From the NCBI GenBank assembly GCA_945919295.1, contig CAMEJC010000001.1, forward strand, positions 16,973 to 80,972: a stretch of DNA of 64,000 bases, written 5' to 3'. The position numbers and the translations under genes are program-made. Below the pieces are notes generated by a model, which ran no database searches, was not told the origin of the DNA, and was given only the letters and a program-made list of their open reading frames with translations. The DNA is from an uncultured Mycoplasmatota bacterium (GTDB lineage: Bacteria; Bacillota_I; Bacilli_A; RF39; UBA660). Of this stretch, positions 29,937 to 62,680 are shown piece after piece. The first letter of the stretch is position 1. The number at the start of each line of letters is the position of its first letter.

Positions 29937-30323
29937 TTATTCTAATACCTTGGTGAATTTTTTTATAGTCTTGTCACTACTATCTTTGTACATAAATGTT
30001 TCCTTACTAAGAAAAAGTATTCTGTGATATACTTTCTTGTCAGCTATTCTAATTATAATATAGAATTGCCCCAAGAGTGGTTTTTTCACCAACGTCCATT
30101 CGAACTTTTGTGCTTCGTCTTCGGTTACATCGTCGGCTGTGTCCCATGTAGTGTAGGTGTGGTCAGAGGAATAAGTTTCGTACAAAGTACCCAATTGCCA
30201 TTTGCCAATAATCAACGCCTCGTCTAAATTGTCGTCGTTTTTAGTACAACTGCTAAACAGGCACACTGCTAACAACAAACAGATATTTGAAAAGAAAAGT
30301 GTTTTTTTCATTGTTTTATTCAT
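29937..30323 (-). CDS. lipoprotein (Bacteroidota-type surface-export signal)
   Basis: Signal peptide ending LFSSC followed by TKNDDNLDE (Cys plus acidic LES-like motif). Confidence 0.5.
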   Translation of the reverse strand: MNKTMKKTLFFSNICLLLAVCLFSSCTKNDDNLDEALIIGKWQLGTLYETYSSDHTYTTWDTADDVTEDEAQKFEWTLVKKPLLGQFYIIIRIADKKVYHRILFLSKETFMYKDSSDKTIKKFTKVLE

Positions 30324-30751
30324 ACATATATGTTATATATTACTTTACATACATTATTTACATCACTCTTTGTAAACTTAGTAGTATTGTATTTACAATC
30401 AAAGTTCCAACCAACCTCTTCAGGTGCTCCTTTTAAGTCTATTAGGTTGTTCTCACTACAATCAAATCCTCCTCCTACCTTTTTCGGTGCACCTTTTAAT
30501 GTTTTTAAGTTATTTACGGAGCAATCAAAATCTCCTTTTACTTCTTTTGGTACCCCTTTAAGTGACGTAAGATTGTTATAATTACAACAGAAGTTACCAT
30601 TAACTACTCCAAATTTGATGTAATTAGGAAAATTAATAAGATTATTATTTACTAAAATCACATCTCCATCTACATCAACTTCTCCTTTGTCGTTGATTGT
30701 ATAATTTGTAATATTATATTGTTTCAACCAATTTTCAATTTGTGTCTTCAT
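30320..30751 (-). CDS. small LRR-repeat protein (family with 32870 and 43824)
   Basis: Start set at MKTQIENWLKQY by paralogy; NNLTSLKGxPKxVxGxFDCS repeats of about 22 aa; the ORF-track extension MQYQNKKQMFNLLKE is read from the promoter/leader. Confidence 0.5.
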   Translation of the reverse strand: MKTQIENWLKQYNITNYTINDKGEVDVDGDVILVNNNLINFPNYIKFGVVNGNFCCNYNNLTSLKGVPKEVKGDFDCSVNNLKTLKGAPKKVGGGFDCSENNLIDLKGAPEEVGWNFDCKYNTTKFTKSDVNNVCKVIYNIYV

Positions 30752-30789
30752 AATAAATTCCCTTTCTTTTAATAGGTTAAACATTTGTT

Positions 30790-30852
30790 TTTTGTTTTGG
30801 TACTGCAAAGGTACGACAAATATTTCATATCGTAGCTAATTTTGTTTATAAA
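30790..30852 (-). promoter_or_regulatory. class-A promoter plus conserved leader
   Basis: Reverse complement reads TTTTATAAACAAAATTAGCTACGATATGAAATATTTGTCGTACCTTTGCAGTACCAAAACAAAAAACAAATG. Confidence 0.6.
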
Positions 30853-31165
30853 AATAAAGCTAAAAAATATTCGATTTAAGGCATTTAATTTTGGTTAGAC
30901 AATAATTTTATCATCAGAATATAGAAAGTGCCTCAGAACTTAAAAGAAGTGGCAAAAAATCGATTTTTACAATCTTCTTACCACTTATTTTAAATAAAAA
31001 CAAAATATTTTGTATTCTGCCGTTGATTTTACTTCATCCTATTTATTGATTGAATCACAATACTTGCTTGCAATTACTTTTGCTTGTTCGTCGTTGTTAG
31101 CAAATATATATAAACATATATAATCGGATATCTGAACAGCATATCGTTTTTCTTTTTCCATAATT

Positions 31166-31663
31166 TTAGTTCATCAATATAATCAACACAAAAATAACAA
31201 AAAGTACAATCAAAATAAAATACCTTATGATACCCCATAGAATATTATTTGGGTAGAATTGTAACCCATCTGGATAAATCACATGTGTCCCATACTTATC
31301 AATGTCGGTCAGAGTTTCTCGCAACTTCATAAGTGTGTTTGTTTTCTCAAGAGTAGAAGTACTATCTGAAAGATTAAGCAACTCATTGCGAGATGCACAC
31401 AGATTATTATACCAATACTCAACATCCTCGTCAGGTGTATTATATAATACAGATGTATAACCAGATGTATAACCTTTTGCCTCTGCATACTGAATAGCGG
31501 CGTCCAACTCTTTGACTGCCAACTCAACAGTGTTTGCATTAGCAGCTCGTTCCAGACGCCCAGAACAATTCTGTCTAAAATCAATGCGCTTGTAAATAAC
31601 TGCACATGCTCCAACAAGCATTAACAATGTTAGAAAAATAACTGTAATTTGTTTCAAACTCAT
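31166..31663 (-). CDS. membrane protein (N- and C-terminal TM)
   Basis: 165 aa; TM helices at both ends; G+C higher than neighbours. Confidence 0.45.
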   Translation of the reverse strand: MSLKQITVIFLTLLMLVGACAVIYKRIDFRQNCSGRLERAANANTVELAVKELDAAIQYAEAKGYTSGYTSVLYNTPDEDVEYWYNNLCASRNELLNLSDSTSTLEKTNTLMKLRETLTDIDKYGTHVIYPDGLQFYPNNILWGIIRYFILIVLFVIFVLIILMN

Positions 31664-31684
31664 GTTTTATATTTTAAAAGTTAA

Positions 31685-32014
31685 TTAATTGTCCATTTCT
31701 TTCTGAAGTTTAATGATCTTCTCGACCCACTCTGCATATTCTTCTGCATAATTACGTACTTCGTGATAACCGTAAGAATGACCTACCTCCCACGCCTGAC
31801 TAACTACAATTTGAGCCTGTTCGTAACTCATTTTATACTCTCCTGAAATTTCTTTTGTAAGGTTATCAAGAAAAGTCTCTTTCTCTGACTGCGCACGACG
31901 ACGTTCCTCCTCGCGGATTTGTCGGGCTTCTTCATCAAATTTTTCTTTTTGTTTTAGAACTTGCACTTCCCAAGCTGTTCTACGAGACTCAAGTTCTTTC
32001 ATTCTTTCATTCAT
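31685..32014 (-). CDS. coiled-coil hypothetical protein
   Basis: 109 aa, rich in charged heptads. Confidence 0.4.
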   Translation of the reverse strand: MNERMKELESRRTAWEVQVLKQKEKFDEEARQIREEERRRAQSEKETFLDNLTKEISGEYKMSYEQAQIVVSQAWEVGHSYGYHEVRNYAEEYAEWVEKIIKLQKEMDN

Positions 32015-32045
32015 AATGTAATCTCCTTTTTATTGAATTTATATT

Positions 32046-32717
32046 TTATTCCCAATTTTTATAATATTCATTACAATCATTAGCTGTCCCTAAAAGATGT
32101 TCGTTTCCTTCATATGGAATACATTGTTTGCCCGAATTACCACCTAATACATGGAAAAAGTTGTCACTAAAAAATCCAAATATTGCTGCTTCCCAAATAC
32201 ATTTACTATCAAGTCTTACTAACACTTTACTCTCAAATGGTTTCAACGTGGTGATGTCGAATTTAGTTTTTTCTAAAGTTTTGGTTTTGGCATCCCAATG
32301 ATAATTATTTTCTTTAAGAATATCAAATAATTTTTGTTTTTCTTCTTCAGTTGCAAACCGTATTTCAGAAATATGTTCTTTATCACAAAGTGGTGAATCA
32401 TTTATATATATAGAAGTATCAAATGTGCAAATAGGAACTGCTACATATTTATAAATGTATCTCTTATTTTCATTTTCTTTGAAAATAAAGATCCAACTAT
32501 TAAGAGATGTAACAAACAATATATCACCATCTTTAAACTCGGACTCAATTAATTTATCCGAATTTTTTGGTTTTACTCGATAGTTGAAGTTTTTCCAATC
32601 CCATAAAGGTTCTATATTCATATCTGTCCATTTATTAGGAATAGCACCATAAATTTGAATTTGCTCACCTCTCTCGTAAGCTTGCATGATTTCAATTTTC
32701 TCTTTTGTTGTTGCCAT
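32046..32717 (-). CDS. hypothetical protein, family A (MQAYERGE...CIPYEGNEHLLGT)
   Basis: Shares N-term TKEKIEIMQAYERGE, internal IRFATEEEKQKLFD and C-term CIPYEGNEHLLGTxxDCxxYYKNWE with 33392, 35621 and 48077. Confidence 0.5.
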   Translation of the reverse strand: MATTKEKIEIMQAYERGEQIQIYGAIPNKWTDMNIEPLWDWKNFNYRVKPKNSDKLIESEFKDGDILFVTSLNSWIFIFKENENKRYIYKYVAVPICTFDTSIYINDSPLCDKEHISEIRFATEEEKQKLFDILKENNYHWDAKTKTLEKTKFDITTLKPFESKVLVRLDSKCIWEAAIFGFFSDNFFHVLGGNSGKQCIPYEGNEHLLGTANDCNEYYKNWE

Positions 32718-32761
32718 AATAGTTTTTCTTTATTTTAATAGATTAAACATTTGTTTTTTGA

Positions 32762-32818
32762 TTTCGAGTACAAAGGTACAACAAATGTTTCATATAGTAA
32801 CTAATTTTGTTTATAAAA
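32762..32818 (-). promoter_or_regulatory. class-A promoter
   Basis: Same consensus (…GTACCTTTGTACTCG). Confidence 0.55.
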
Positions 32819-32869
32819 TTGAGGATAAAAAAAGTTGAACCCATTATCAAGTAAATCATAATAGTGTTT

Positions 32870-34260: not shown

Positions 34261-34542
34261 TTATTTTCCTCTATTAAACATTTTTTTAATAGAATTTTTA
34301 ATTAAACACCATAAAGTTGGTATAAACGCTTCACATGGTTTCTGTAAAGGAACATTACGACTATTAAATATATAATCTTTTGCGATGCAATGATATCTTG
34401 GATAACGTGTATTAGAACTTGGCGATAAATAAGTCTCGCCTGGAAAATGGCTCAAATTACTACAGTTTTTACAATTTAATGAGTAATCTTCATAATTTTG
34501 ACTTTTCATAATAATTTCCATTTCTTTTAATAGGTTAAACAT
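34261..34542 (-). CDS. Cys-rich hypothetical protein
   Basis: 93 aa; N-term MFNLLKEMEIIM comes from the conserved leader, so MKSQNY is an alternative start; no full promoter upstream. Confidence 0.4.
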   Translation of the reverse strand: MFNLLKEMEIIMKSQNYEDYSLNCKNCSNLSHFPGETYLSPSSNTRYPRYHCIAKDYIFNSRNVPLQKPCEAFIPTLWCLIKNSIKKMFNRGK

Positions 34543-35620: not shown

Positions 35621-36037
35621 TTATTTTTCAGTCAAAATTTGTTTCCCACATGGTGTGTTATCAAGAAACACATAATCATCAAACATTTTACATACATGAT
35701 TTAATTCATCACGAATGCCATTCATTACCAAAAGAACTCTTCCTTGTGAATCTACGAATGCACAACATACTACTCCAGTGTTTGTACTCTTAACTTCAAC
35801 TCCATGTTCTTTTTGTGCCTCCAAAAACTCATACGGAGTATCAAACGGAATATACTTTGGTTTTGGTTTTACACGATAATCTGCATATCCCCAATTCCAC
35901 ATTGGATTCTCGCATAATGTCCACTCGCCATGGTTGTAATTTTCTATCAGCTCACCTCTCTCGTAGGCTTGCATAATTTCAATTTTTTCTCTTATAGTTT
36001 TCATAATAGTTTTCATTTCTTTTAATAGGTTAAACAT
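35621..36037 (-). CDS. hypothetical protein, family A (short)
   Basis: IREKIEIMQAYERGE after the leader-derived MFNLLKEMKTIM; the true start may be M8 or M12. Confidence 0.45.
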   Translation of the reverse strand: MFNLLKEMKTIMKTIREKIEIMQAYERGELIENYNHGEWTLCENPMWNWGYADYRVKPKPKYIPFDTPYEFLEAQKEHGVEVKSTNTGVVCCAFVDSQGRVLLVMNGIRDELNHVCKMFDDYVFLDNTPCGKQILTEK

Positions 36038-36049
36038 CCGTTTTTTGAT

Positions 36050-36105
36050 TTCAAGTACAAAGGTACAACAAATAGTTCATATAGTAACTAATTTTGTTTA
36101 TAAAT
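36050..36105 (-). promoter_or_regulatory. class-A promoter
   Basis: Same consensus. Confidence 0.55.
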
Positions 36106-36114
36106 CTATCATTT

Positions 36115-39132: not shown

Positions 39133-39157
39133 AATATTAATTTTTTAAGTTAATTAG

Positions 39158-39244
39158 TACCACCAGTGGGATTCGAACCCACACGGACATTACTGCCCAA
39201 CGGATTTTAAGTCCGTCTTGTCTGCCTAGTTCCAACATGGTGGC
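39158..39244 (-). tRNA. tRNA-Leu(TAA)
   Basis: 87 nt; acceptor GCCACCA/TGGTGGT; anticodon arm ACGGA-CTTAAAA-TCCGT (anticodon TAA); long variable arm; T-arm GTGGGTTCGAATCCCAC. Confidence 0.85.
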
Positions 39245-39257
39245 TTATTCATTTTAT

Positions 39258-39533
39258 TTATTTTCTATCACCTATATATTCAACCAATGACTTCATATCA
39301 CGAACTAATTCATCTTTTACCCATGCCTTATCAGCATCGCCACTTAAAGCCATTACTACATCCCGATAACTCAAAATACGACGTTCAGGGTCAGGATGAA
39401 TAGACATTAAAAATGGGTCATCTAATTTATGGCTCAATAGGTCTTTAAAAACTAATTCCATTATCGAAAGTAATACTGAATCATATTCACTACTATTCTC
39501 TTTTTTCCAAATAATAAAATCTTCGTTACTCAT
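39258..39533 (-). CDS. hypothetical protein
   Basis: 91-aa ORF. Confidence 0.4.
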   Translation of the reverse strand: MSNEDFIIWKKENSSEYDSVLLSIMELVFKDLLSHKLDDPFLMSIHPDPERRILSYRDVVMALSGDADKAWVKDELVRDMKSLVEYIGDRK

Positions 39534-39565
39534 ATTATAACTTTTTTTCTATTTCAACAAAATAA

Positions 39566-40174
39566 TTATAAAATTCGTTTACCAATTTTTATTTTCTTTG
39601 CTACAACTTTAGAATCAAATTCATGCCTTTCATCAGAAACTCCTTCAAGCTCAACCTCATGAACAACTATTTCTTTTCCTAAATCTCCATAATAGTAGCT
39701 AAATACATCAGTTAGACTTAAACAAGCGTGAAAACCTTGTTTACATAATAGAGGTTTACCTTTAATTTTATAAGTCTTACCTTCTTCATATTGAAAACCA
39801 CGACAAGTCATATTTGAATTAAATACTTTATATGCTTTGCATTTACCTTCAACTACTTCTTGTGTTTCATAGGTTGTATTACCAATAATTACACTTTTTA
39901 AATTGTTACAAATATCGAAAGCAAATCCTTCAATACTCGTTACTGAATTTGGAATTGTAATAGAAGTAAGATTTAAACAGTCTTTAAACGCACAACGTCC
40001 AATTTCCGTTATTGAGTTAGGTAGAGTAATAGAAGTAAGTAAGGTGCAACCACAGAATGCATAATATCCGATGCTTGTATATCCATCAATCATATCAGAA
40101 GTAATAACTTCTAATTTATCTAATCCAAGTTTTTCTATAAGTACTCTTGTTAATACTTTTTCTTCATTTTCCAT
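39566..40174 (-). CDS. BspA-type leucine-rich repeat protein
   Basis: YAFCGCTLLTSITLPNSITEIGRCAF... matches LRR_5/BspA repeats; C-terminal domain shared with 44270-45016. Confidence 0.55.
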   Translation of the reverse strand: MENEEKVLTRVLIEKLGLDKLEVITSDMIDGYTSIGYYAFCGCTLLTSITLPNSITEIGRCAFKDCLNLTSITIPNSVTSIEGFAFDICNNLKSVIIGNTTYETQEVVEGKCKAYKVFNSNMTCRGFQYEEGKTYKIKGKPLLCKQGFHACLSLTDVFSYYYGDLGKEIVVHEVELEGVSDERHEFDSKVVAKKIKIGKRIL

Positions 40175-40245
40175 AATAACTAAATTTATTCTAAAAGTTT
40201 TTTACATGATAAATTAATGGAGTTCCGTCATCATATTTATAGTTG

Positions 40246-40330
40246 CGGAGGCTGTAGGATTCGAACCTACGGTACCTATTGGTACGGCGATTTTCAAGAC
40301 CGCTGGATTAAACCACTCTCCCAAACCTCC
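40246..40330 (-). tRNA. tRNA-Ser(TGA)
   Basis: 85 nt; anticodon arm GCGGT-CTTGAAA-ATCGC (anticodon TGA); long variable arm; T-arm GTAGGTTCGAATCCTAC. Confidence 0.85.
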
Positions 40331-40419
40331 ATATTATGGCTACTTTTATTTTCACACTGCAAAGATAATATATTTTTTTGAGATATAAAACAATTTTGTT
40401 TATAAAAATAGATTATCTT

Positions 40420-40776: not shown

Positions 40777-40778
40777 AT

Positions 40779-41296: not shown

Positions 41297-41297
41297 A

Positions 41298-42167: not shown

Positions 42168-42180
42168 AAACTCCTATAAA

Positions 42181-51816: not shown

Positions 51817-51915
51817 AGTTTAATTAATTTAAGTTCAACTTCTTCTTTTAGTTTGACACAGCAAAGGTACAAGAAAATTCTAATATACTACATAATTTTG
51901 TTTATAAAAAAATAG

Positions 51916-52593
51916 TACCACCAGTGGGATTCGAACCCACACGGACATTTCTGTCCAACTGTTTTTCATACCACGCTACGATACCATACACAAACAATCT
52001 TGTATTATTTTCTACTATGTTTTATATACACCTACAATTATATTCTCAGTGCGTTTATTCATAGCCCCAATTTCGGCTATTATTGTTGTGATATGTTACC
52101 ATAGTTACCTTGAATATGTGCATCAAAAAAAACATCCTTTCGGAATAGGCACCTCCCATCAAAACATCAAGGTGTTGTGGTATTTGGCTGTCTTTACCAT
52201 ATTGAAATTCTTCGAAGTAATAAAGAATCATGAATAACATTGGTTTTAATAAGGTTTTCCGTACCTTGATTCTTTATAATATCAACGTAGGTATCTCCCA
52301 TTCAGCCTGTACACAATTAAAGTAGAAGTTCACTTCATTATACCATTATAGAACTTTAATTGCTCGATGTAGTCCTTGCACATTATTGATTAGTGTCAGT
52401 AAATTATTGAAATTATTGTCTCCGCAGTGCGAATTAAGTCAAAATTAGGATTTCGATTACCGATTTCCATTTATTAACCCAATAATCTCTTAAAGGATTT
52501 CCACCGAAATTAGGAGATTATAACAAGGGTTGTTCACGCCTTGCCACTCAAATTCATTGAGTCAGTCTTGTCTTCCGTTTCCAACATGGTGGT
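51916..52593 (-). tRNA. split tRNA (Leu-like, long variable arm) interrupted in the anticodon loop by about 590 nt (candidate group I intron)
   Basis: 5' part 52559-52593 (ACCACCATGTTGG...GACTGACTC) and 3' part 51916-51966 (AAAACAGTTGGACAGAAATGTCCGTGTGGGTTCGAATCCCACTGGTGGTA) align to the intact tRNA-Leu copies; anticodon reconstructs as CAA if spliced after C34. Confidence 0.45.
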
Positions 52594-52682
52594 TTATTTC
52601 AATATTTCAAAGATTAGGTACTCATTTGAGTACTTTTAGTTTCACATTTCTGACTTTTACATATTAATAATTTAATTGTTAG

Positions 52683-52756
52683 TGCGCCCAACAGGACTTG
52701 AACCTGTAGCCTGCTGATTATGAGTCAGCTGCTCTAACCTATTGAGCTATAGGCGC
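52683..52756 (-). tRNA. tRNA-Met(CAT) (elongator, or Ile-lysidine type)
   Basis: 74 nt; acceptor GCGCCTA/TGGGCGC; anticodon arm GCTGA-CTCATAA-TCAGC; T-arm ACAGGTTCAAGTCCTGT. Confidence 0.8.
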
Positions 52757-54239: not shown

Positions 54240-54271
54240 AGTTCAATTATTAATTTTAGTTTAATAAATTG

Positions 54272-54358
54272 TACCACCAGTGGGATTTGAACCCACACGG
54301 ACATTACTGCCCAACGGATTTTAAGTCCGTCTTGTCTACCTAGTTCCAACATGGTGGC
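54272..54358 (-). tRNA. tRNA-Leu(TAA), second copy
   Basis: Near-identical to 39158-39244 with a few substitutions. Confidence 0.85.
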
Positions 54359-54464
54359 ATATTTCAAAGATTAGATACTCATTTGAGTACTTTTATTTTC
54401 ACACTGCAAAGATAATATTTTCTTTTGAGATATATAACAATTTTGTTTATAAAATTTATAGTTG

Positions 54465-54549
54465 CGGAGGCTGTAGGATTCGAACCTACGGTACCTATTG
54501 GTACGGCGATTTTCAAGACCGCTGGATTAAACCACTCTCCCAAACCTCC
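54465..54549 (-). tRNA. tRNA-Ser(TGA), second copy
   Basis: Identical or near-identical to 40246-40330. Confidence 0.85.
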
Positions 54550-54575
54550 ATATTAGAAACTCTTTTCTAATTTTG

Positions 54576-54648
54576 AGCCTCTTGTTGGACTCGAACCAAC
54601 GACCACGAGATTACAAATCAAGTGCTCTACCTACTGAGCTAAAAAGGC
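54576..54648 (-). tRNA. tRNA, probable Thr(TGT); anticodon stem imperfect
   Basis: 73 nt; acceptor GCCTTTT/AAGAGGC; D-arm AGCTCAGTAGGTAGAGC (Thr-like); loop TTTGTAA gives TGT; T-arm GTTGGTTCGAGTCCAAC; two mismatches in the anticodon stem. Confidence 0.5.
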
Positions 54649-54877
54649 TAATAATATCTTCAAGTATAAAAGATTCCCACATCTCCTCTATACTATTATC
54701 AAAGCATGTAATAGTGGTTTGCTACATGAATAGATTAATTACTTCTATTTTTTCTTTGAGAAGATATAATTTTTAAGTGTTTATTCACTATAATTAGAGG
54801 TTTTTATAGTTGTTTTCCTTCAACTATTTTCGCACTGCAAAGATAATCTATTTTTTTGATATAAACAACTATTTTTT

Positions 54878-55054
54878 TTAATAACACATATTCATTTCTT
54901 GAATCTTTTGAAATGATTCCCACTCAAAAGCCGCATCTATGATTTCTTGTTCATCGTCGATGTTTGCACACCCCATTTCATCATAGATTACATTTGCTTG
55001 GAACTCTGTAAATCCTTCGTTCATTATTATTTCTAATTTTTCTTCTATTCCCAT
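54878..55054 (-). CDS. small acidic hypothetical protein (58 aa, below the ORF-track threshold)
   Basis: MGIEEKLEIIMNEGFTEFQANVIYDEMGCANIDDEQEIIDAAFEWESFQKIQEMNMCY after leader AAAAAAAAGAGACAATTATG; N-term resembles 42181-42513. Confidence 0.35.
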   Translation of the reverse strand: MGIEEKLEIIMNEGFTEFQANVIYDEMGCANIDDEQEIIDAAFEWESFQKIQEMNMCY

Positions 55055-55325
55055 AATTGTCTCTTTTTTTTAGTCAATTATACATGCTCCTATAAAATCG
55101 CAATATTCAAGATTATTTTGTGGAATATTATCCGCAATTTTCTTCGCTTGATCCATTGCGTCTTCCTCATTTTCGGCCTTTACCGATACTTGCGCACAAA
55201 AGTCATAATGCACATTTACAACATATTCCTTGACTTCTCCTTTTTTAATAGGAAATACTTTTTTTGTTTTGGTGCTGCATATTTCATAAGCCCTCCTTTT
55301 TTAGTTAATCATAATTTGTTTGTTT

Positions 55326-55380
55326 TGGTACTGCAAAGGTACAACAAATATTTCATATAGTACTAATTTTGTTTATAAAA
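55326..55380 (-). promoter_or_regulatory. class-A promoter
   Basis: Same consensus. Confidence 0.55.
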
Positions 55381-55536
55381 TTTTTTCACATAAAGCCAAA
55401 TACTATATTATCAAATAAAACAAAAAAATAAACATACTAAATATTTTTGTTTATGAAAATATAAAATCTAAAATAAGGCACTTTTTAAGCGATTTAAGGA
55501 ACTTTCATTTGTAGATATATAATTTATCAAATAAAC

Positions 55537-55568
55537 AAAAAAAACACCATATAATTGATATATGGTGG
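55537..55568 (-). terminator. rho-independent terminator (minus strand)
   Basis: CACCATATAATTGATATATGGTG hairpin plus T8 on the minus strand. Confidence 0.6.
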
Positions 55569-55838: not shown

Positions 55839-55894
55839 ATTACCTCCTTTTTAAGTAAAAAACTTATTTGTTTTTTGATTTTTATGCAAAGATA

Positions 55895-56161
55895 CTACAT
55901 TTTTTTTTCAAAACCTTTCTCTCGACTTTCCATATAGCCCATAGCTATTTTCTTCGTATCAAAAGAAGTTTCATATACACCATTGTGATATATGTCATAC
56001 ACTTTGATAAATGCACCTTTTCTTGTGTAGTAATTGTGGGTAACTGCGGACATTCCGTGTACACCATAACTACAAGACCATCGGCCATTAAAGTTAGTCG
56101 CAGGAACACAACCACGCTTTGACAAATCTACTCGATGTTTTTCCATTTCTAATGCTTGCAT
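55895..56161 (-). CDS. hypothetical protein
   Basis: Start set at MQALEMEK; the longer ORF-track form is read through the promoter. Confidence 0.4.
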   Translation of the reverse strand: MQALEMEKHRVDLSKRGCVPATNFNGRWSCSYGVHGMSAVTHNYYTRKGAFIKVYDIYHNGVYETSFDTKKIAMGYMESREKGFEKKM

Positions 56162-56374
56162 AGTTTTAGTTGTTTTAGTTGTTAGCAAATATTTGTTTTT
56201 TGATTTCGAGTACAAAGGTACGACAAAATTCTAACATACTACATAATTTCGTTTATAAAAAATCTATAAACAAAACCACACATAATATCAAAAAAATTTT
56301 TTTATTTGATAATATAGCCGAAAATAAAAAATAAAAAAACACTAACTTATTGTTAGTGTTTCATTTTACGAAAA

Positions 56375-56698
56375 TTATAGTGTTTTCAATTTATCCTTTA
56401 CATACGAAATAAATTCATCACCTACAATATATGACTTTGCACCAACATGCCAATTAATTGTTGTGTCGTTACTAAATCCACTATACTCTTTCCAATCGTA
56501 TATTGTTACTGAAAAGACCTCGTCAAATTCGTAAAGTTCAACAGCAAAATGCCATTCAAATTTGACTTTGTCATCGTTATAACTATTTGTTGGTTCACCA
56601 AATAACTCAATTATTTGGTTTTTAGTTGCAGGAAATTCACCAACATAAAATGTACCTACAATCTCTACATTAGAATCTTTTTCAACTCTTTTTATCAT
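56375..56698 (-). CDS. hypothetical protein
   Basis: Start set at MIKRVEKDS after leader AAAAAAGGAGGCATTATG. Confidence 0.4.
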   Translation of the reverse strand: MIKRVEKDSNVEIVGTFYVGEFPATKNQIIELFGEPTNSYNDDKVKFEWHFAVELYEFDEVFSVTIYDWKEYSGFSNDTTINWHVGAKSYIVGDEFISYVKDKLKTL

Positions 56699-56837
56699 AA
56701 TGCCTCCTTTTTTAGTTAATACTTGTTTTTGTTTTGATACTGCAAAGGTACAAAAAGGCTTTAACATACAGCATTATTTTGTTTATAAAAAAAGGCACAC
56801 AAATTGTGTACCTTTTAATTTTATATCACCGATTTGG

Positions 56838-57284
56838 TTAAAATTCGACTTTTTGTCGTTCAATCAAGAACTCGATGAAATTCATCAACATTTGTTGTTT
56901 TGATAGAATTTTATCTACCACATCATCGAGTTCTAAAATTTCCTCGATTTCCTCTTGTTCATCGCCGCAACCTACAATAACATAGTAGTTATTGCTATCT
57001 TTTTCTGAAAAGAGGTAATAGTCTTTCAACTTTTCAATTTCAAGTGAAACCGACAGGTTGTTGTCAATTCCGACCTCCACGAGTTTGCCAACGTTTTCGC
57101 GTGAATAGTCCATGAATTTGGTCGTTTTTGGCCAAAATTCAAATTTGTGCATAAAGGCGTTAATTTCGTCAGCAGACCACGCCAAAATTTCGTCTTTCAC
57201 AAGCGGTTTTACAACCGATTTTACGAGATTTGTGAGTTCGTTGTTGTTGAACATTGCCGAAATTACAAAATTTTTCATTTCCAT
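56838..57284 (-). CDS. hypothetical protein, family E
   Basis: MEMKNFVISAMF ... VKSVVKPLVKDEILAW is paralogous to 62246-62581. Confidence 0.45.
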   Translation of the reverse strand: MEMKNFVISAMFNNNELTNLVKSVVKPLVKDEILAWSADEINAFMHKFEFWPKTTKFMDYSRENVGKLVEVGIDNNLSVSLEIEKLKDYYLFSEKDSNNYYVIVGCGDEQEEIEEILELDDVVDKILSKQQMLMNFIEFLIERQKVEF

Positions 57285-57376
57285 AAGCCCTCCTTTTTTA
57301 AGTTGTTAATAAAATTGTTTGTTTATTTTGATACTGCAAAGGTACAATAAAATTCTAATATACTACATAATTTTGT

Positions 57377-57565
57377 TTATAAAAAACCTCCAATAGAAAG
57401 TAGGTCGTCCCAATTGTTTACTATAAAATAGTAAGCATCGTTTGATATTTCGCCATTAGCATTTAATGACCTCATATCGGACAAAATATCCTCACAATCA
57501 TCGTGTTGCTCACAAGAATTGTAAAACATTTTTACTTCCTTTGAATACTTTCTCAAACCTTTCAT
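57377..57565 (-). CDS. small hypothetical protein
   Basis: Start set at MKGLRKY after leader AAAAAGGGAGGTAATTATG. Confidence 0.35.
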   Translation of the reverse strand: MKGLRKYSKEVKMFYNSCEQHDDCEDILSDMRSLNANGEISNDAYYFIVNNWDDLLSIGGFL

Positions 57566-57602
57566 AATTACCTCCCTTTTTAAATTTATTTGTTTATTTT
57601 GA

Positions 57603-57660
57603 TACTGCAAAGGTACAATAAAATTCTAATATACTACATAATTTTGTTTATAAAAAAATC
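57603..57660 (-). promoter_or_regulatory. class-A promoter
   Basis: Same consensus. Confidence 0.55.
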
Positions 57661-57725
57661 CATAAACAAAACCACACATAATATCAAAAAAATTTTTTTA
57701 TTTGATGATATAGGCTATAAAATAA

Positions 57726-57757
57726 CAAAAAAATGGTCTTGTTTCACAACAAGACCA
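57726..57757 (-). terminator. rho-independent terminator (minus strand)
   Basis: GGTCTTGTTTCACAACAAGACC hairpin plus T-run. Confidence 0.6.
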
Positions 57758-57797
57758 CCCTAACAAAAATGAAAACTAAAAAAACATGGCAATATAA

Positions 57798-58406
57798 TCA
57801 TTCATCTTCTTCAAATTCATCTTCATCCCATTCAATGTCTTCATCAATTTCATAAATTACTTCTCCGTTTTCGCAAGAAATACCTTGATGAAAACCACAC
57901 CCATACTCATACCCATCCAATTCAAAAGACAATTTTGGATTTTCTTTGGCAATAGTAGTTACCCACATAAGTGGTGCGCACCACGCAGTGTCAAACACAC
58001 CTTTAACACAAAGAACACCATCGTCCTCATCCATGGATACACAATAATCAAACACTTTTGCGTCCCATTTGACACCTAATGTTTTTAAGTTGTAGGCATA
58101 CCAACCTACTGCACCATAAGTTTCTTTTTGGTGTTCAACAGCGGTATCATACCCCTTTGAGTATTTTTCATACTCATCATCGGTGTTGAAATAGTTTCTG
58201 TTCAATTTTCTATTTGTTGTATCATAATCAACAAACGTTTGTGGCATTGGCAACCAAGAACGCATTGTGATTTTGTCTTTATTGTTTTCAATGAACTCTA
58301 AAAGGCTTTCTTGGGTTTCTCCTTTGAAACCAACTTTTTTGAAGAAATCAAATATATCTTCCTTTTTCCCTTTAATTTGGATTGTGTCTTCACAATAATT
58401 CGGCAT
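57798..58406 (-). CDS. acidic hypothetical protein
   Basis: 202 aa; leader AAAAAAGGAGGGCTTATG. Confidence 0.45.
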   Translation of the reverse strand: MPNYCEDTIQIKGKKEDIFDFFKKVGFKGETQESLLEFIENNKDKITMRSWLPMPQTFVDYDTTNRKLNRNYFNTDDEYEKYSKGYDTAVEHQKETYGAVGWYAYNLKTLGVKWDAKVFDYCVSMDEDDGVLCVKGVFDTAWCAPLMWVTTIAKENPKLSFELDGYEYGCGFHQGISCENGEVIYEIDEDIEWDEDEFEEDE

Positions 58407-58502
58407 AAGCCCTCCTTTTTTAAGTTGTTAATAAAATTGTTTGTTTGTTTTGGTACTGCAAAGGTACAACAAGTTTTTCATATATATGGAAACTTTGTTT
58501 AT

Positions 58503-58532
58503 AAAAAAAAATAAGGGAATAAAATCCCCTTA
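58503..58532 (-). terminator. rho-independent terminator (minus strand)
   Basis: AAGGGAATAAAATCCCCTT hairpin plus T9. Confidence 0.55.
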
Positions 58533-58536
58533 TCTA

Positions 58537-58884
58537 TTATTCATAATGTTTATCCAAAACATCTATTATATCTATGCCAATTCCTATTATATCATAGAAA
58601 TCACTAATCTCTAATTCATAGACCTCCGCATAAGGCTCTGGCATAAACATTATTGTTAAATAGCCGTCTTCTATTCGTAATTCGACTATCTTTCCCTCTA
58701 CTACATTGTCAAATGCAATAGATGTAGCGTATATTATTTCATCATCATCCAATTTGATGTTGATGTTATTTATTTCTTTACAAATAACATTTATTAGTTT
58801 TCGCTCTTTATTGAGCAACTTATTGTAGTCTTTATTAAGACCTTTAATCTTTTCGATATTTTTTTTCATTTCAGTCGTTTTCAT
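58537..58884 (-). CDS. hypothetical protein
   Basis: 115-aa ORF. Confidence 0.45.
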   Translation of the reverse strand: MKTTEMKKNIEKIKGLNKDYNKLLNKERKLINVICKEINNINIKLDDDEIIYATSIAFDNVVEGKIVELRIEDGYLTIMFMPEPYAEVYELEISDFYDIIGIGIDIIDVLDKHYE

Positions 58885-59059
58885 ATTGCCTCCTTTTTTA
58901 ATAGTTAATACTTGTTTTTGTTTTGGTATTGCAAAGGTACAACAAGTTTATAATATACTACATAATTTTGTTTATAAAAATTTTTCACCTAAAATTGCCA
59001 ACAATACCTATATCTTCAAATAAAACAAAAAAATTGACATATAACTGAATTATGTTTAT

Positions 59060-59094
59060 AAAAAAATTGCTACCCAAATAATATTGAGTAGCAA
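59060..59094 (-). terminator. rho-independent terminator (minus strand)
   Basis: TTGCTACCCAAATAATATTGAGTAGCAA hairpin plus T7. Confidence 0.55.
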
Positions 59095-59129
59095 TCACCA
59101 AACATGTGTACAAATAAAAAAGGAGTAGT

Positions 59130-59987
59130 TTAATTCGCTTTTAAATATTCATTACATTTCAATGTATCAAATATCTGTGTAATTGTTTTACCATTATTTA
59201 ATTCATTGATGATATATGTCATATCTATTTTTATTTCATTTTTACCATCTCTACTATAATCTTGTACATATTTCATAAAGGTATTAAAGCCTTTTTTGAT
59301 TATTGTACTATCTTTATAGATAATAGTATTACTATCAAGTGTACAATCTTTTAATGATATTTTTTTACGACCCTTTTCTTTTGCTTTTTCAAGAAGTTTA
59401 GTAACCTCTTTATATGCTCTATTTTGGTCGCCCTCTGCTCCATACATTATTCGGTCTAAATTTGAGCCACTAATTACATCATCTTTTAATAAAGACGATA
59501 GTTTAGGGTCTAATTCCAAATATCCCAAATATCGAGATATTACACTTTGATTTTTACCCAATTTCTTGGCAACTTCACTTTGGGTTAAACCACATCTATC
59601 CATCAGTTTTTTTGCCAATACGCCCCATTCATAAGCATTAAACGGTTTGCCCTCATTTCTTAACGCTTGTTGAAGTAACAACTCCTCTTCGCTTGTACTT
59701 TTAGACAATAGTAAACTTGGAATACGTGCTATCTCAACACCTTCGTTTATGAGTTTCATTACCGCTCTATATCGACGTTCTCCATCGACTAATTTATATT
59801 TCTCAAACCCATCTTCATCAACGAAAGGTATTGTTGAGATTGGATTTAAAACTCCCTGCTCTTTAATTTGAGCCGCAAGTTCATCTATATCACCAAAGTT
59901 AGTTCGACTATTAAAGTCTTTAACTACCACGATGTTACGTGGGTCTATTTTAAATATTTCTCCTTTGATTGTCTTATTGTTTTCCAT
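59130..59987 (-). CDS. ParB-like nuclease/partition-family protein
   Basis: KLVDGERRYRAV ParB box plus HTH-like LTQSEVAKKLGKNQSVISRYL. Confidence 0.6.
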   Translation of the reverse strand: MENNKTIKGEIFKIDPRNIVVVKDFNSRTNFGDIDELAAQIKEQGVLNPISTIPFVDEDGFEKYKLVDGERRYRAVMKLINEGVEIARIPSLLLSKSTSEEELLLQQALRNEGKPFNAYEWGVLAKKLMDRCGLTQSEVAKKLGKNQSVISRYLGYLELDPKLSSLLKDDVISGSNLDRIMYGAEGDQNRAYKEVTKLLEKAKEKGRKKISLKDCTLDSNTIIYKDSTIIKKGFNTFMKYVQDYSRDGKNEIKIDMTYIINELNNGKTITQIFDTLKCNEYLKAN

Positions 59988-60063
59988 ATTTTTTTATTTT
60001 AATTTTAACACTGCAAAGATAATACTTTTTTTTTACCTATTTGATATTTTTGTTTATGAAAAA

Positions 60064-61005
60064 TTATATAACATCTTTTTGCTTAAAATATTGTTGCAAT
60101 TTTTGTATAGCAGTAAGTTTTATTCTATATATCATCTGTGTTGAACAATTAAATATTGTTGCAAGTTCCTCTGCACTTAATATCTTATTACCATTTAAAC
60201 CATAAAGATGTTCTATTATATACTTTTCCTTATAGCAAGTCGGTATAACACCATTTTTTAATCCTGATTTTTTTCCCTTAAAACGATTAATCTCTTGCTC
60301 ATAGTATTGATTTATCTCTTCAAGATAAACATTTTTATCCATTGAATAATCAATACATTCATCAATCATATCCTCATTCTCGTTTATTTGATACTCTATC
60401 TTGTCCCTCATACAAACTGAATCATCAACTTCATTAAAGCCATCTAATGACACAAAGGTGCTATTACTATGTTCTATACGTTGAATTTCATAACGTTTAA
60501 CATCAGGAAACTCATCTTCTATCATTTGCTCACTCGGATAATAACCATTTTCAACGTAAAATTTGTCTATAAACCTTTTAATTTGATAATTCAACGGCTT
60601 ACCATTCAATGATATTACACTACCATCAGAATTTCTCATCGTATAAGTCAAGATACATTTTATTGCATAAGAGAGAAAATTTATCGTTTGATTTTCAGTG
60701 TCATAAGTCTCTATCGCTTTAATTAAACCAAAATTTGCTTCTGACATAAAGTCAAAAAAATAATAATTATTGCAATACTTCTTGGCTAACATAAAGCATA
60801 ATGATTGAAATGATATTATCAATTTCTCTAACGATTTGTCTGATTTATCATTCTTCTCTTGAACATCCTTAATTAAAGGAATACATTCTGTTTGAGACAA
60901 TCTGTATTTCTTATTAAGGATTTTATTCAAGTATCTACCAAAATTTTCATTGCAAGATAAATTTAAATATTTACCTTGTACCTCATTAAAGTCTAAAAAT
61001 TTCAT
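60064..61005 (-). CDS. RNA polymerase sigma factor (sigma-70 family, phage-encoded)
   Basis: Region-2-like FMSEANFGLIKAIETYD; region-4 HTH LSAEELATIFNCSTQMIYRIKLTAIQKLQ. Confidence 0.55.
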   Translation of the reverse strand: MKFLDFNEVQGKYLNLSCNENFGRYLNKILNKKYRLSQTECIPLIKDVQEKNDKSDKSLEKLIISFQSLCFMLAKKYCNNYYFFDFMSEANFGLIKAIETYDTENQTINFLSYAIKCILTYTMRNSDGSVISLNGKPLNYQIKRFIDKFYVENGYYPSEQMIEDEFPDVKRYEIQRIEHSNSTFVSLDGFNEVDDSVCMRDKIEYQINENEDMIDECIDYSMDKNVYLEEINQYYEQEINRFKGKKSGLKNGVIPTCYKEKYIIEHLYGLNGNKILSAEELATIFNCSTQMIYRIKLTAIQKLQQYFKQKDVI

Positions 61006-61009
61006 AATA

Positions 61010-61309
61010 TTATATTTTCATTGTAAAACACAATCCATTGTCATCAACACTACCAACACTATCAACAACACTATAAACTTTCTTATTAAAGGCTGACCAT
61101 TCTAACTCTAAACCATTATCATATAATATTGTACAATAGTATAGATACTTATTCTTCATTTGGACTTTTATTTTGTCCAAACTTTCTTCGTCAAATAAAT
61201 AGACAGGTTCATCACTAGTCTCATACCATCTATCATCTATGTATGATAAATAACGAGATGATTTCTCGTTTTTTATTTTGCTTTTTGATAATTGTATTGC
61301 TATCTTCAT
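61010..61309 (-). CDS. hypothetical protein
   Basis: 99-aa ORF. Confidence 0.4.
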   Translation of the reverse strand: MKIAIQLSKSKIKNEKSSRYLSYIDDRWYETSDEPVYLFDEESLDKIKVQMKNKYLYYCTILYDNGLELEWSAFNKKVYSVVDSVGSVDDNGLCFTMKI

Positions 61310-61354
61310 ATTCTTAATATTTTTAGGTACTCGTTTGAGTATAATTTTTTTATT

Positions 61355-61651
61355 TCACTCTTTTACCTTATTTACTAATATTTTTAGTATCTTTAATAAA
61401 AGACTAGTGTCTTCTACTTTATCAATACTAACATAATAACCATCAATGAATACCTCACAAGTTGAATTGTAAGTTTTAACACCACTAATAGTAGTATTAA
61501 TTACTAACGTGTTAAATATCTTCAAATCACCTTCTTCTATTTCTTGTGTAGAAAGTAATTTGGATACTCCATGTATTGTATCTCTAATCTTTCGATTAAG
61601 ATAAAATACTTCTTTTTCAATTGTATTAATTTCTTTTTCTAATTCATTCAT
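61355..61651 (-). CDS. hypothetical protein
   Basis: 98 aa; leader AAAAAAGGAGGATTTATG. Confidence 0.4.
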   Translation of the reverse strand: MNELEKEINTIEKEVFYLNRKIRDTIHGVSKLLSTQEIEEGDLKIFNTLVINTTISGVKTYNSTCEVFIDGYYVSIDKVEDTSLLLKILKILVNKVKE

Positions 61652-61756
61652 AAATCCTCCTTTTTTAGTAACTAAACTTGTTTGTTTTGGTATTGCAAAG
61701 ATACAATAAGTTTTTCACTTATAATAAATTTTTGTTTATTAAATAATATCTCAATA

Positions 61757-61849
61757 TTAAGAAAATATTAATATTGATATTGCTGTACAAACTACTGGTA
61801 TTGACACAAATATGATACCATAAACAACATTGATTACTTTTTCATTCAT
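61757..61849 (-). CDS. 30-aa hydrophobic peptide
   Basis: MNEKVINVVYGIIFVSIPVVCTAISILIFS directly after leader AAAAAAGGAGGCAATTATG; the longer ORF-track version is promoter read-through. Confidence 0.3.
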   Translation of the reverse strand: MNEKVINVVYGIIFVSIPVVCTAISILIFS

Positions 61850-62245
61850 AATTGCCTCCTTTTTTAGTGTTAATAAATTTGTTTTGTTTTGATGCTGCAA
61901 AGGTACAATAACATTTTTATATACAGCATTATTTTGTTTATAAAAACATAAAACACAAAATAAGGCACTTTTAATGCGTTTTAAGGCACTTTGTTTTTTT
62001 ATGTATGTTTTATTGATTACATAAAAACAATGCAATACAAGTGAAATATGATAGTAATTTTAACGATATTAAAAAACAACATAATAAACATGGGTTTGTT
62101 TAAGTAAAAAATATCCACACAATTTTTTAGTGTTAAATACCTATATCTCCAAATAAAACAAAAAAATCAATATACAACTGATTTATGTTTATAAAAAAAA
62201 AGGCACACAAATTGTGTACCTTTTAATTTTAGATTAACGATTTGA

Positions 62246-62581
62246 TTAAAAATCGGATTTTTTTCTTTCAATCAAGATTTCAATGAATTTTACCAACATT
62301 TGTTGGTCATTTACTATCTTATCGGCCACTTTGTCAGTTTTAAGCGACCACACGTCGCGACCATAATCAATGAATTGAGACATTTCGTCCCAATAGTCCG
62401 CCATGAGGTCTTTTACCTCGTCTGGCGTCCACTCTGCCAATTCTTCTTTTATCATCGGTTTTACAACCGATTTCACAACATTAATGAGTTTGTTGCTGCC
62501 GAACATTTCAGCAATCATTTTCTCAATCTCTTTTTCGCTTTGAGCGAACATTGCAGCCATTACAAAATTTTTCATTTCCAT
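62246..62581 (-). CDS. hypothetical protein, family E
   Basis: Start set at MEMKNFVMAAMF by paralogy; the upstream MQYQNKKQMFNLLKKGVL is derived from promoter and leader. Confidence 0.45.
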   Translation of the reverse strand: MEMKNFVMAAMFAQSEKEIEKMIAEMFGSNKLINVVKSVVKPMIKEELAEWTPDEVKDLMADYWDEMSQFIDYGRDVWSLKTDKVADKIVNDQQMLVKFIEILIERKKSDF

Positions 62582-62624
62582 AAGTACTCCTTTTTTTAAT
62601 AGGTTAAACATTTGTTTTTTGTTT

Positions 62625-62680
62625 TGGTACTGCAAAGGTACAACAAGTTTTTCATATATATGGAAACTTTGTTTATAAAA
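62625..62680 (-). promoter_or_regulatory. class-A promoter
   Basis: Same consensus. Confidence 0.55.

Follow-up and report, generated by a model that had tools for sequence, protein, structure and literature searches.

The stretch analysed here (the window; 64,000 nt of contig CAMEJC010000001.1, G+C content 29%) contains 26 copies of an intergenic module, chiefly on the minus strand of the 30.7-62.7 kb segment. The explanation that best accounts for the observations as a whole, to which we assign a probability of about 0.65, is that these modules form an array of Bacteroidota-type promoter cassettes that also act as a contributing substrate of recombination. The DNA belongs to an uncultured gut phage, probably with a host from Bacteroidota. 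The 30-63 kb region would represent the accessory part of this animal-gut phage of roughly 84-87 kb and, by analogy with other phages, is probably its early host-takeover region. The coding strand changes at ∼29.5 kb: the plus strand carries the genes before this point, the minus strand those up to 64 kb.

A search for direct repeats revealed a 67-nt family with 20 copies at positions 30791-62684, with longer registers of 99-113 nt in 13-15 copies, and the core TACCTTTGCAGTACC was matched 17 times (at most 3 mismatches), compared to 0.87 matches expected. A hidden Markov model (HMM) trained on the 20 repeat copies was run over the whole window with nhmmer, and this gave the 26 matches: 21 on the minus strand at 30.7-62.7 kb, and five outside this interval (26349-26415 on the minus strand; 1867, 6655, 9672 and 12268 on the plus strand). 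All 26 copies are co-directional with the downstream gene or tRNA gene. They are 70-110 nt in size and share 75-97% identity. An earlier, first-pass annotation of this DNA had described a repeated module within 30320-62680 preceding nearly every gene or gene pair. The module exists and 21 copies lie in that interval, but the four plus-strand copies and 26349-26415 lie outside it, and the density was overstated: there are 21 modules for ∼67 genes on the minus strand at 30.7-62.7 kb, and only at 55.3-62.7 kb does a module precede nearly every gene or gene pair. In other parts of the region, a single module heads an operon of 2-10 genes. The near-identity of whole intergenic modules was borne out by the example originally given, since 56190-56345 and 57587-57745 are 90% identical across ∼160 columns.

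Neither degenerate nor exact module patterns were matched in IMG/VR, the GTDB representative genomes (185,579) or the JGI metagenomes, which makes the module lineage-specific. Similarly, megablast of 20 kb of the window against 50,697 phage records gave no match. A mobile element of the miniature inverted-repeat transposable element type was considered and rejected: the copies lack both terminal inverted repeats and target duplications and are always oriented according to the gene that follows.

For the analysis of module structure, the 26 copies were aligned on their best-conserved box, with the G of this -7 box numbered as -5. The consensus comprises tTTTTATAAACAAAATTa (-53 to -36), TATaT (-30 to -26), TT.TtG (-18 to -13), TAcCTTTG (-12 to -5), CAGTa and an A-rich leader, with the highest information content in the TAcCTTTG box. 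Between the conserved upstream block, TTTATAAACAAAAT, and this box there is a ∼20-nt variable spacer, which falls into discrete subtypes. The leader is 35-60 nt long and in about half of the cases ends in AAAAAAGGAGG-N5-ATG; where a protein gene lies directly behind the module, the distance from the -7 box to the start codon is 34-62 nt. The two leader types quoted in the first-pass annotation are both present, and two more were found besides. The subtypes are as follows:

Spacer S1: ATTATGTAGTATAT
Spacer S2: AGTTTCCATATATATG
Spacer S3: ATTAGyTACkATATG
Spacer S4: ATAATGCTGTAT
Spacer S5: ATTGTTwTATATCTC, upstream of tRNA-Ser 40245-40330 and tRNA-Leu 54271-54358
A further spacer subtype, confined to the plus-strand copies
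Leader L1: AAGTATTAACTAAAAAAGGAGG
Leader L2: CAATTTTATTAACAACTTAAAAAAGGAGG
Leader L3: CAAATGTTTAACCTATTAAAAGAAA
Leader L4: CTAAAAGAAGAAGTTGAACTTAAATTAA

Spacers and leaders are paired in a mosaic manner. For instance, modules 51869 and 57615 share an identical spacer, while their leaders are only 45% alike.

A hairpin (at least -7 kcal/mol in strength) with a T-run was found within 150 nt upstream of 9 of the 26 modules, compared to 24 of 300 random windows (8%). The upstream terminator hairpin, previously taken to be part of the module, is thus enriched but present in only about a third of the copies, and the stem-loops have no conserved sequence. Terminator-like sites in general are strongly over-represented at 44-63.5 kb (29, with 5.3 expected) and much more weakly at 24.5-44 kb (11, with 5.1 expected). 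The T-rich "class B" sequence, initially viewed as a mere spacer within the module, turned out to be a separate element conserved in its own right, with six copies in the window compared to 0.16 expected. Its layout resembles that of the class A module (TTTATAAACA, ∼25 nt, then TTTTTGTTTTATTTG), with a box, TTTATTTG, in which T replaces the near-invariant A-11. At four sites, class B is placed ∼75 nt upstream of a class A module.

The modules and associated elements are listed below in window coordinates. A number in brackets after the class is the name of that module in the text, SD denotes a Shine-Dalgarno sequence, and L010, L012, L013 and NODE_110 are related contigs described later.

62615-62689, minus: class A module, S2/L3 (AAAAAAAGGAG), heading 62246-62581 (family E); 61.6 bits in nhmmer
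61880-61954, minus: class A module (61905), S4, SD leader, heading small open reading frame (ORF) 61757-61870; S2 in L012 and L013
61678-61751, minus: module heading the operon 61355-61651 / 61010-61309 / sigma factor gene 60064-61005
59998-60066, minus: class C-like module (TATCTTTGCAGTGTTAAAAT), heading the ParB-like gene 59130-59987
59003-59096, minus: terminator hairpin 59065-59096 running into class B (TTTATAAACAtaa...TTTTTGTTTTATTTGAAGATAT), in tandem upstream of 58914-58988
58914-58988, minus: class A module (58939), S1/L1, SD, heading 58537-58884; S4-like spacer in L010
58441-58535, minus: hairpin 58509-58535 fused to class A module (58466), S2/L2, SD, heading 57798-58406; leader L1 in 4/4 relatives covering the site
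57590-57761, minus: hairpin 57730-57761, inverted upstream element 57643-57669 and class A module (57615), S1, SD, heading 57377-57565; spacer S4 in 4/4 relatives covering the site
57319-57391, minus: class A module, S1/L2, SD, heading 56838-57284 (family E)
56724-56815, minus: hairpin 56791-56815 fused to class A module (56750), S4/L1, SD, heading 56375-56698
56194-56362, minus: hairpin 56336-56362, inverted upstream element and class A module, S1
55874-56212, minus: cassette found only in the window (leader, 88-aa gene 55895-56161, degraded module), between -7 boxes GTACCTTTG ... GTATCTTTG
55317-55567, minus: hairpin 55545-55567, motif GTTCCTTAAATCGC..AGTGCCTTATTTT, class B core 55405-55426 and class A module (55341), S3, SD
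55078-55297, minus: segment deleted in L010 and L012, between SD-type leaders ACTAAAAAAGGAG and ACTAAAAAAAAGAG
54826-54880, minus: weak class C module upstream of tRNA-Thr and tRNA-Ser (54464-54648)
54389-54456, minus: class C module, S5, heading tRNA-Leu 54271-54358
51843-51917, minus: class A module (51869), S1/L4, heading 51553-51816 (family D)
47872-47947, minus: class A module, S1/L4, heading 47441-47845 (family C); a replacement in NODE_110 has its right breakpoint at the 5' edge of this module
45890-45983, minus: hairpin and class A module, S2/L1, no SD, heading 45662-45865
42540-42706, minus: inverted upstream element, class B core 42637-42658 and class A module (42566), S1/L1, heading 42181-42513; spacer S3 in NODE_110
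40342-40412, minus: class C module heading tRNA-Ser 40245-40330
36039-36107, minus: class A module, S3/L3, heading 35621-36004 (family A fragment); lacking in NODE_110
32752-32822, minus: class A module, S3/L3, heading 32046-32717 (family A)
30788-30861, minus: class A module, S3/L3, heading 30320-30751 (leucine-rich repeat (LRR) family 1)
28193-28214, minus: class B core alone, the sole promoter-like element upstream of the methyltransferase gene 26535-28124
26349-26514, minus: hairpin 26487-26514, class B element and module, outside the interval of the first-pass annotation
1867-1934, plus: module heading the RNA ligase gene 1975-3351
6655-6703, 9672-9733 and 12268-12336, plus: further modules

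The module was compared with the promoters of Bacteroidota, whose consensus, -33 TTTG / -7 TAnnTTTG, has been revised to TAHHTTTG (PMC6847099). In Flavobacterium johnsoniae promoters, T-12, A-11, T-8, T-7, T-6 and G-5 are near-invariant, G is absent from positions -10/-9, AT-rich motifs occur near -18 and -28, and the -33 element is weak; Bacteroidetes are also described as lacking SD sequences (PMC6847099). All 26 class A and class C copies comply with TAHHTTTG, including each of the six near-invariant bases; in the window the box takes the form TA[C/T/A][C/T]TTTG. TATaT is centred at ∼-28 and TT.TtG occupies -18 to -13, and the genome is SD-poor. Unlike in the host consensus, conservation extends from -53 to about +20, the CAGTA start region is fixed, and the region near -33, where a TTTG 19-21 nt upstream of the -7 element would be expected, holds only TTA(T/G)G-like sequences or TTG. 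In L002, a relative at ∼70% nucleotide identity, TTG-TACCTTTG-CA is kept together with the leader and its SD, while the upstream block has diverged, and at other metagenomic loci of gene family C a T-run followed by TTG-TAtmTTTGCA is found before genes. The only homologues of family C in cultured phages are those of Cellulophaga phages. Matches to sigma-70-like -35/-10 pairs were not more frequent in the window than in shuffled sequence (135 versus 120, and 144 versus 125). The modules therefore fit promoters of the Bacteroidota type and not sigma-70 -35/-10 promoters. Since they match the consensus in an SD-poor genome and precede tRNA genes as well as the phage sigma factor operon, they are most likely read by the primary sigma factor of a Bacteroidota host. 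A promoter of a single-subunit phage RNA polymerase was also considered and rejected: no such polymerase was seen among the genes, and the core equals the host-type -7 box.

The phage encodes a sigma-70-family factor of 313 aa (60064-61005, minus strand), recognized by TIGR02937 (43.9 bits, cutoff 42.9; residues 58-306), phrog_351 (1.9e-18) and SigA in the PDB (3e-7). No relative of this protein was found in IMG/VR, and its homologues in cultured phages, those of Bacillus, Salmonella and Klebsiella phages, are distant. The first-pass annotation had proposed testing this factor as the driver of class A. We consider this role unlikely, because the sigma factor gene is the third gene of an operon that is itself headed by a module (61678-61751).

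The leaders add a second signal. GGAG or GAGG is found upstream of 1 of 27 plus-strand genes and 13 of 63 minus-strand genes, and ∼85% of the genes are without any SD. By contrast, a GGAG-type SD, always in the form AAAAAAGGAGG-N5-ATG, precedes 8 of the 16 genes located directly behind a module, versus 7 of 51 other genes. It was also found before two small ORFs behind modules 61905 and 55341. This extended SD is nearly restricted to class A leaders, for example those at 58885-58913, 58407-58440, 57285-57318, 56699-56723 and 61652-61677, and the SD is kept in relatives even where the remainder of the leader has been exchanged. The ribosomes of Bacteroidia do not recognize the SD (PMC9976891), the anti-SD being sequestered (PMC9976891, PMC13000453), and strong SDs in this group are essentially limited to rpsU or rpsR and are read by bS21-lacking ribosomes (PMC9976891, PMC7797042, PMC13000453). 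No bS21 gene was identified among the 67 proteins of the region. The cassettes may be portable units supplying signals for both transcription and translation. If translation of strong-SD mRNAs by bS21-lacking ribosomes applies here, the phage would steer a set of immediate-early genes to a special ribosome pool or free the anti-SD during infection, with exchange moving the combined signal from gene to gene; this idea is unlikely. The occurrence of strong SDs in an SD-avoiding genome nevertheless bears on the role of the retained anti-SD in Bacteroidia and on its exploitation by phages.

To examine variability of the region, related contigs were reached via protein look-ups. All of them are metagenome assemblies, and the following seven, which are independent assemblies, were compared:

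NODE_110 (L003/L006): ENA ERZ10407400, 87.2 kb
JAIFIQ010000083.1 (L004/L007): GCA_019972935.1, 80.0 kb
L010-L014: ERZ27280500, ERZ28656920 (XIAO16), ERZ27280493, ERZ28613685 (MUNK18) and ERR1135181

In addition, contig JAIFIJ010001619.1 (L001; GCA_019973115.1) is 100% identical to 57558-64000. NODE_110 is collinear with 24.8-55.9 kb at 88-98% identity, interrupted by 15 indels or replacements. NODE_110 and JAIFIQ010000083.1 possibly come from the same sample.

Relatives sharing one gene order, the observation that according to the first-pass annotation would refute its proposal, were not what was found at 30.7-56.3 kb. With all relatives pooled, 29 distinct indels or replacements were identified in these 25.6 kb, and this segment is truly hyperplastic. 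Compared with NODE_110 alone, there were 15 events in ∼31 kb of the minus-strand region versus 4 in 21 kb of the plus-strand block (6.7-27.8 kb). Thirty of the 58 breakpoints lie within 25 nt of the end of a gene or tRNA gene (10.5 expected, p = 8e-9), and turnover therefore takes place at the level of whole genes.

Four junctions fall within conserved parts of the module. (a) The 337-nt cassette found only in the window (55874-56212) is precisely bounded by a -7 box on either side. NODE_110, JAIFIQ010000083.1, L010, L011 and L012 all lack this cassette and carry a single hybrid module at the site, with identical junctions. (b) A deletion of ∼210-220 nt in L010 and L012 fuses two SD-type leaders (55078-55297). 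(c) In L010, the class C module of tRNA-Leu is replaced by a class A module with a 60-aa ORF, the junction lying within TTTATAAACAAAATT. (d) A 55-nt indel at 61751, where the relatives have the extra 55 nt, lies between two copies of ATAAACAAAA. Moreover, three different indels in three relatives begin within or shortly after the leader of module 51869 (51798-51813), and two replacements end at a module edge or leader (47943 and 30752). One of these is a NODE_110 replacement (2.46 kb versus 0.73 kb) with its right breakpoint in the leader of module 30788-30861.

Modules at orthologous positions were also found to differ in subtype between genomes whose flanking sequences are ∼95% identical. 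The spacer subtype was switched at six positions (61905, 58939, 57615, 56750, 55341 and 42566) and the leader subtype at one (58466), and the same module variants recur in assemblies from different samples, e.g., L012 and L013. Variable columns make up 9.9% of orthologous module cores, compared to 4.1% of coding sequence and 7.9% of third codon positions, and the changes form clustered tracts. Such a pattern is the hallmark of cassettes undergoing ectopic exchange or gene conversion with one another.

Recombination between paralogous genes accounts for at least five events. In NODE_110, for example, recombination between family B paralogs removed 36442-35536, including module 36039-36107. A 7.2-kb difference between NODE_110 and JAIFIQ010000083.1 lies exactly between two LRR_5+DUF7666 paralogs (window 39566-45103). 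Most turnover occurred at ordinary gene boundaries or inside paralogs, and the cassettes are therefore regarded as a contributing substrate and not as the main engine.

In the mechanism that we propose, the array of near-identical cassettes with TAyCTTTG boxes would drive transcription of the region, and the A of CAGTA is the predicted start; starts of Bacteroidota promoters lie about 5 nt after the G of the box. Roughly one cassette in three lies behind a hairpin of the intrinsic-terminator type, which would yield short insulated operons. Both the cassettes, owing to their length and similarity, and the paralogous cargo would supply homology for ectopic recombination.

The first-pass annotation had likened the array to the promoter early stem-loop (PeSL) cassettes of T4-type phages. 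A PeSL consists of a stem-loop, an AT-rich stretch, an early promoter, an SD and ATG, and PeSLs concentrate in hyperplastic regions, close to the indels that distinguish closely related phages (Comeau et al. 2014, PMC4122927); excision of PeSL-bounded mini-circles has been demonstrated experimentally (Arbiol et al. 2010, PMC2839356). The window elements are likewise composite, ∼100 nt long, and repeated in many copies among small ORFs of unknown role. Every copy located before a protein gene has the promoter, the leader and the ATG, with an SD in 8/16 and a strong hairpin in 9/26, and 21 of the 26 copies lie in a 32-kb minus-strand region of ∼67 mostly uncharacterised ORFs. Close relatives differ by ORF-level indels, some with junctions in the element, and both systems have degraded "half" elements and tandem promoter variants (class B here, PmSL in nt-1). 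Unlike the PeSL, the window element has a Bacteroidota -7 promoter in place of TTGACA-N17-TATAAT, a stem-loop in only about a third of its copies and with no conserved sequence, and no significant enrichment of indels; furthermore, the lineage is unrelated to T4-type myoviruses, having no DNA match among deposited phages. PeSL membership is not claimed, in view of the different promoter grammar, a phage that is not of the T4 type, the facultative nature of the stem-loop and the non-significant indel association. The cassettes are an analogue of the T4 PeSLs, with PeSL-like behaviour in some of the documented events, and their role as a shuffling device is partly supported: anatomy, the four in-module junctions and subtype exchange speak for it, while the low share of events at modules and the stability of the densest array (see below) do not.

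Arrays of co-oriented strong early promoters and moron-type promoter-gene-terminator units occur in other large phages. The window resembles these in having similar co-oriented promoters before short operons of small accessory genes, and genes with their own promoter and terminator. It differs in that the repeats are long and similar enough for subtype exchange, which is documented by population variants.

Several points weigh against the reading of the modules as Bacteroidota-type promoter cassettes that contribute to recombination. The textbook TTTG is not seen in the -33 region, and the strong SD leaders, of a kind reported as unused by the phylum (PMC9976891), are unexpected if the assignment to a Bacteroidia host is right. 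The host itself was inferred, and bins of metagenome-assembled genomes with family C mix Bacteroidales and Firmicutes; promoter function, the transcription start and early timing were all inferred as well. The module zone is touched by 6 of the 29 events, or by 8 if the count includes two events that lie 15-18 nt inside the gene following module 51869. This association is not significant, as 4.2 events would be expected with uniform placement (p = 0.24 for 6) and 7.8 with placement at gene ends. The densest part of the array (56.2-62.6 kb, nine modules) has the same gene order and no indel of 60 nt or more in 5/5 covering relatives. Finally, the 7.2-kb difference between the LRR_5+DUF7666 paralogs could stem from genuine loss through recombination of the paralogs or from their collapse during assembly.

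Other explanations were weighed against the same data. If the cassettes were the principal engine of plasticity, with genes between two cassettes excised as mini-circles and re-inserted elsewhere as in the complete PeSL model, the matching anatomy, the in-module junctions, the three independent events starting in the leader of module 51869 and the mosaic pairing of upstream halves with leaders would all be accounted for, as would the inserted segments that carry their own modules (NODE_110 at 21926 and 22772; L010 at 8857). The unremarkable number of events at modules, the constant gene order of the densest array in five relatives and the recombination between paralogous genes make so far-reaching a role doubtful. 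At the other extreme, the modules might be purely regulatory repeats maintained by selection, with no role in recombination, and the exchanges might be assembly artefacts. Assemblies do break at modules (L001 at 57558; NODE_110 at ∼6742), and the indel association is non-significant; however, the diverged 70-110-nt modules fall below the assembly k-mer length of several contigs (k = 141), the same switches appear in assemblies of different samples (L012 and L013; L010-L013 at 57615), and the 337-nt insertion is missing, with identical junctions, from five independent contigs. Non-consensus spacer positions are, moreover, identical between distant loci, which promoter selection does not explain, and we regard an artefactual origin of the exchanges as highly improbable.

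With respect to promoter type, the presence of a true sigma-70-family gene in the region, conservation beyond the minimal host consensus (in the upstream block and CAGTAcCAAAAC) and the absence of the module pattern from all 185,579 representative genomes could indicate that the modules are promoters for the phage sigma factor and the region a middle or late one. Such a factor would need itself for its own expression, though; the best-conserved element is the host-type -7 box, and the same module precedes tRNA genes and genes of both strands. Class B (TTTATTTG) is, speculatively, the better candidate for a different sigma specificity, and the modules are quite unlikely to serve the phage factor. 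A non-Bacteroidota host, for which the family C contigs binned with Firmicutes could be cited, would turn the module into a sigma-70-type promoter (TTTATA, 17 nt, TATATT/TATTAT), TTGTACCTTTGCAGTACC into a transcribed leader/operator and GGAGG into an ordinary ribosome-binding site. TTTATA-17-TATTAT reaches 9/12 matches at modules 58978 and 42605, and the SDs are perfect and canonically spaced. On the other hand, sigma-70-like matches occur at shuffled frequency, the putative -10 is the least conserved part and freely switches subtype, most genes lack an SD, and L002 keeps the -7 box but neither the putative -35 nor the -10, so that this alternative appears very unlikely.

Regulatory cassettes as recombination substrates are known from T4-type coliphages and vibriophages, and the Bacteroidota-type cassettes would extend this to an unrelated gut phage with another promoter grammar. 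They offer natural variants in which promoter parts have been exchanged between loci, yet most turnover of gene units took place at ordinary gene boundaries. The array is also a candidate engineering set of strong, insulated Bacteroidota-type promoters and leaders. The region itself is a likely reservoir of host-takeover and counter-defence genes, with eight paralog families, the unannotated family C, and Tad3 on the opposite arm.

The cargo of the region was analysed by all-against-all blastp. The eight paralog families share 29-57% amino-acid identity, and cargo of families A-D, F and the LRR families lies within 30320-54239 (minus strand). Families A-E and the LRR families of the first-pass annotation were recovered, and family F is new:

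Family A, minus: 32046, 33392, 35621, 48077
Family B, minus: 35084, 36115, 49478
Family C, minus: 37511, 38384, 47441, 50433, 53859
Family D, minus: 38854, 51553
Family E, minus: 56838, 62246
Family F, minus: 47144, 52769
Family LRR1, minus: 30320, 32870, 34261, 43824
Family LRR_5+DUF7666 (Pfam), minus: 39566, 44270

Among the 67 proteins of the region, only the LRR_5/DUF7666, ParB-like, sigma factor, ThyX fragment and phosphoesterase proteins were recognizable with Pfam and PHROGs; most proteins have no PHROG match. Family C has >8000 metagenomic homologues of ∼120-150 aa, often in several copies per phage contig, with the motifs MTQEEK...PYLRPMSSMT...HFDYRGLIEKGLA and no Pfam domain. An AlphaFold2 model (predicted local distance difference test score 78.5) comprises an N-terminal helix, a small five-stranded sheet/barrel and a helical C-terminus. 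Foldseek against the PDB gave nothing below E = 0.2, hence no fold match that would suggest a function.

On the plus strand, the product of 18505-19497 matches Pfam Tad3, a type I Thoeris inhibitor (6.8e-22). The segment with this gene (18467-19528) is absent from NODE_110 and is one of the four events in the plus-strand block. The same arm encodes three DNA methyltransferases, an RNA ligase, WG-repeat proteins and a DUF4422 protein. The large proteins matched neither PHROGs nor the PDB, and for the 827-aa and 824-aa plus-strand proteins no PDB sequence match was found.

Some further sequence features accompany the modules. An inverted copy of the upstream block precedes the block at 42678-42705, 56248-56273 and 57643-57669 (minus strand), and the pattern TTGTTTATrGA-N6-8-TATAAACrAA was matched three times, with 0.00 expected; the resulting palindrome could serve a dimeric DNA-binding protein as operator or form a weak hairpin. 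A 33-nt motif with a direct repeat, GTGCCTTAAAwCGCwTwAAAAGTGCCTTATTTT, occurs at 55470-55502 and 61957-61989 (minus strand; two matches, none expected), just upstream of class B 55405-55426 and class A 61880-61954, respectively, with a partial copy near 30890. At 30752-30784, 34510-34542, 36005-36037 and 62582-62611, the L3 leader holds an ATG (ATGTTTAACCTATTAAAAGAA, MFNLLKE) in frame with the downstream gene, and a fifth such ATG (32717) is closed by a stop codon. This ATG could be an alternative start or a mere consequence of the fixed leader length. In addition, L001 and NODE_110 end inside modules, at 57558 and ∼6742, and since independent contigs do so, the repeats evidently break short-read assemblies of the phage.

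The tRNA genes show duplications of their own. tRNA-Ser(tga) and tRNA-Leu(taa) are present both at 39157-40330 and at 54271-54549, the tRNA-Leu regions being 95% identical over 99 nt, and one member of each pair lies behind a class C module (tRNA-Ser 40245-40330; tRNA-Leu 54271-54358). A split tRNA-Leu-like gene was found at 51915-52650 (minus strand), with its 5' half near 52590 (ACCACCATGTTGGAAACGGAAGACAAGACTGACTCAA) and its 3' half at 51915-51960 (GTTGGACAGAAATGTCCGTGTGGGTTCGAATCCCACTGGTGGTAC), ∼630 nt apart. Only a 61-aa ORF lies between the halves, in a stretch that is conserved in relatives except for a variable patch at 52393-52494. It could be an intron-bearing tRNA gene or a recombination remnant. 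Rfam searches (gathering threshold for the whole window; E ≤ 1 for 51.8-52.8 kb and L011) returned tRNAs only and no group I intron. At L011 9210-9704, corresponding to window 52682-52756, tRNA-Ile(tat) and an HNH_3 endonuclease gene (134 aa) replace tRNA-Met(cat). An HNH insertion inside tRNA-Met was considered for L011 and rejected, as ARAGORN predicts that tRNA-Ile(tat) is intact, with the HNH gene behind it.

Finally, a G-rich array is located at 62702-62913 (minus strand), upstream of module 62615-62689. In it, a 12-nt unit, CTTGATGGGGTA, is repeated 3.4 times and a 26-nt unit (...GGGAGGGT...) 2.7 times, and the array adjoins a hairpin, GGGGGTACCCCC, at 62897-62913. The ParB-like gene is 2.7 kb away. 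The array could comprise iterons, a parS-like site or an origin.

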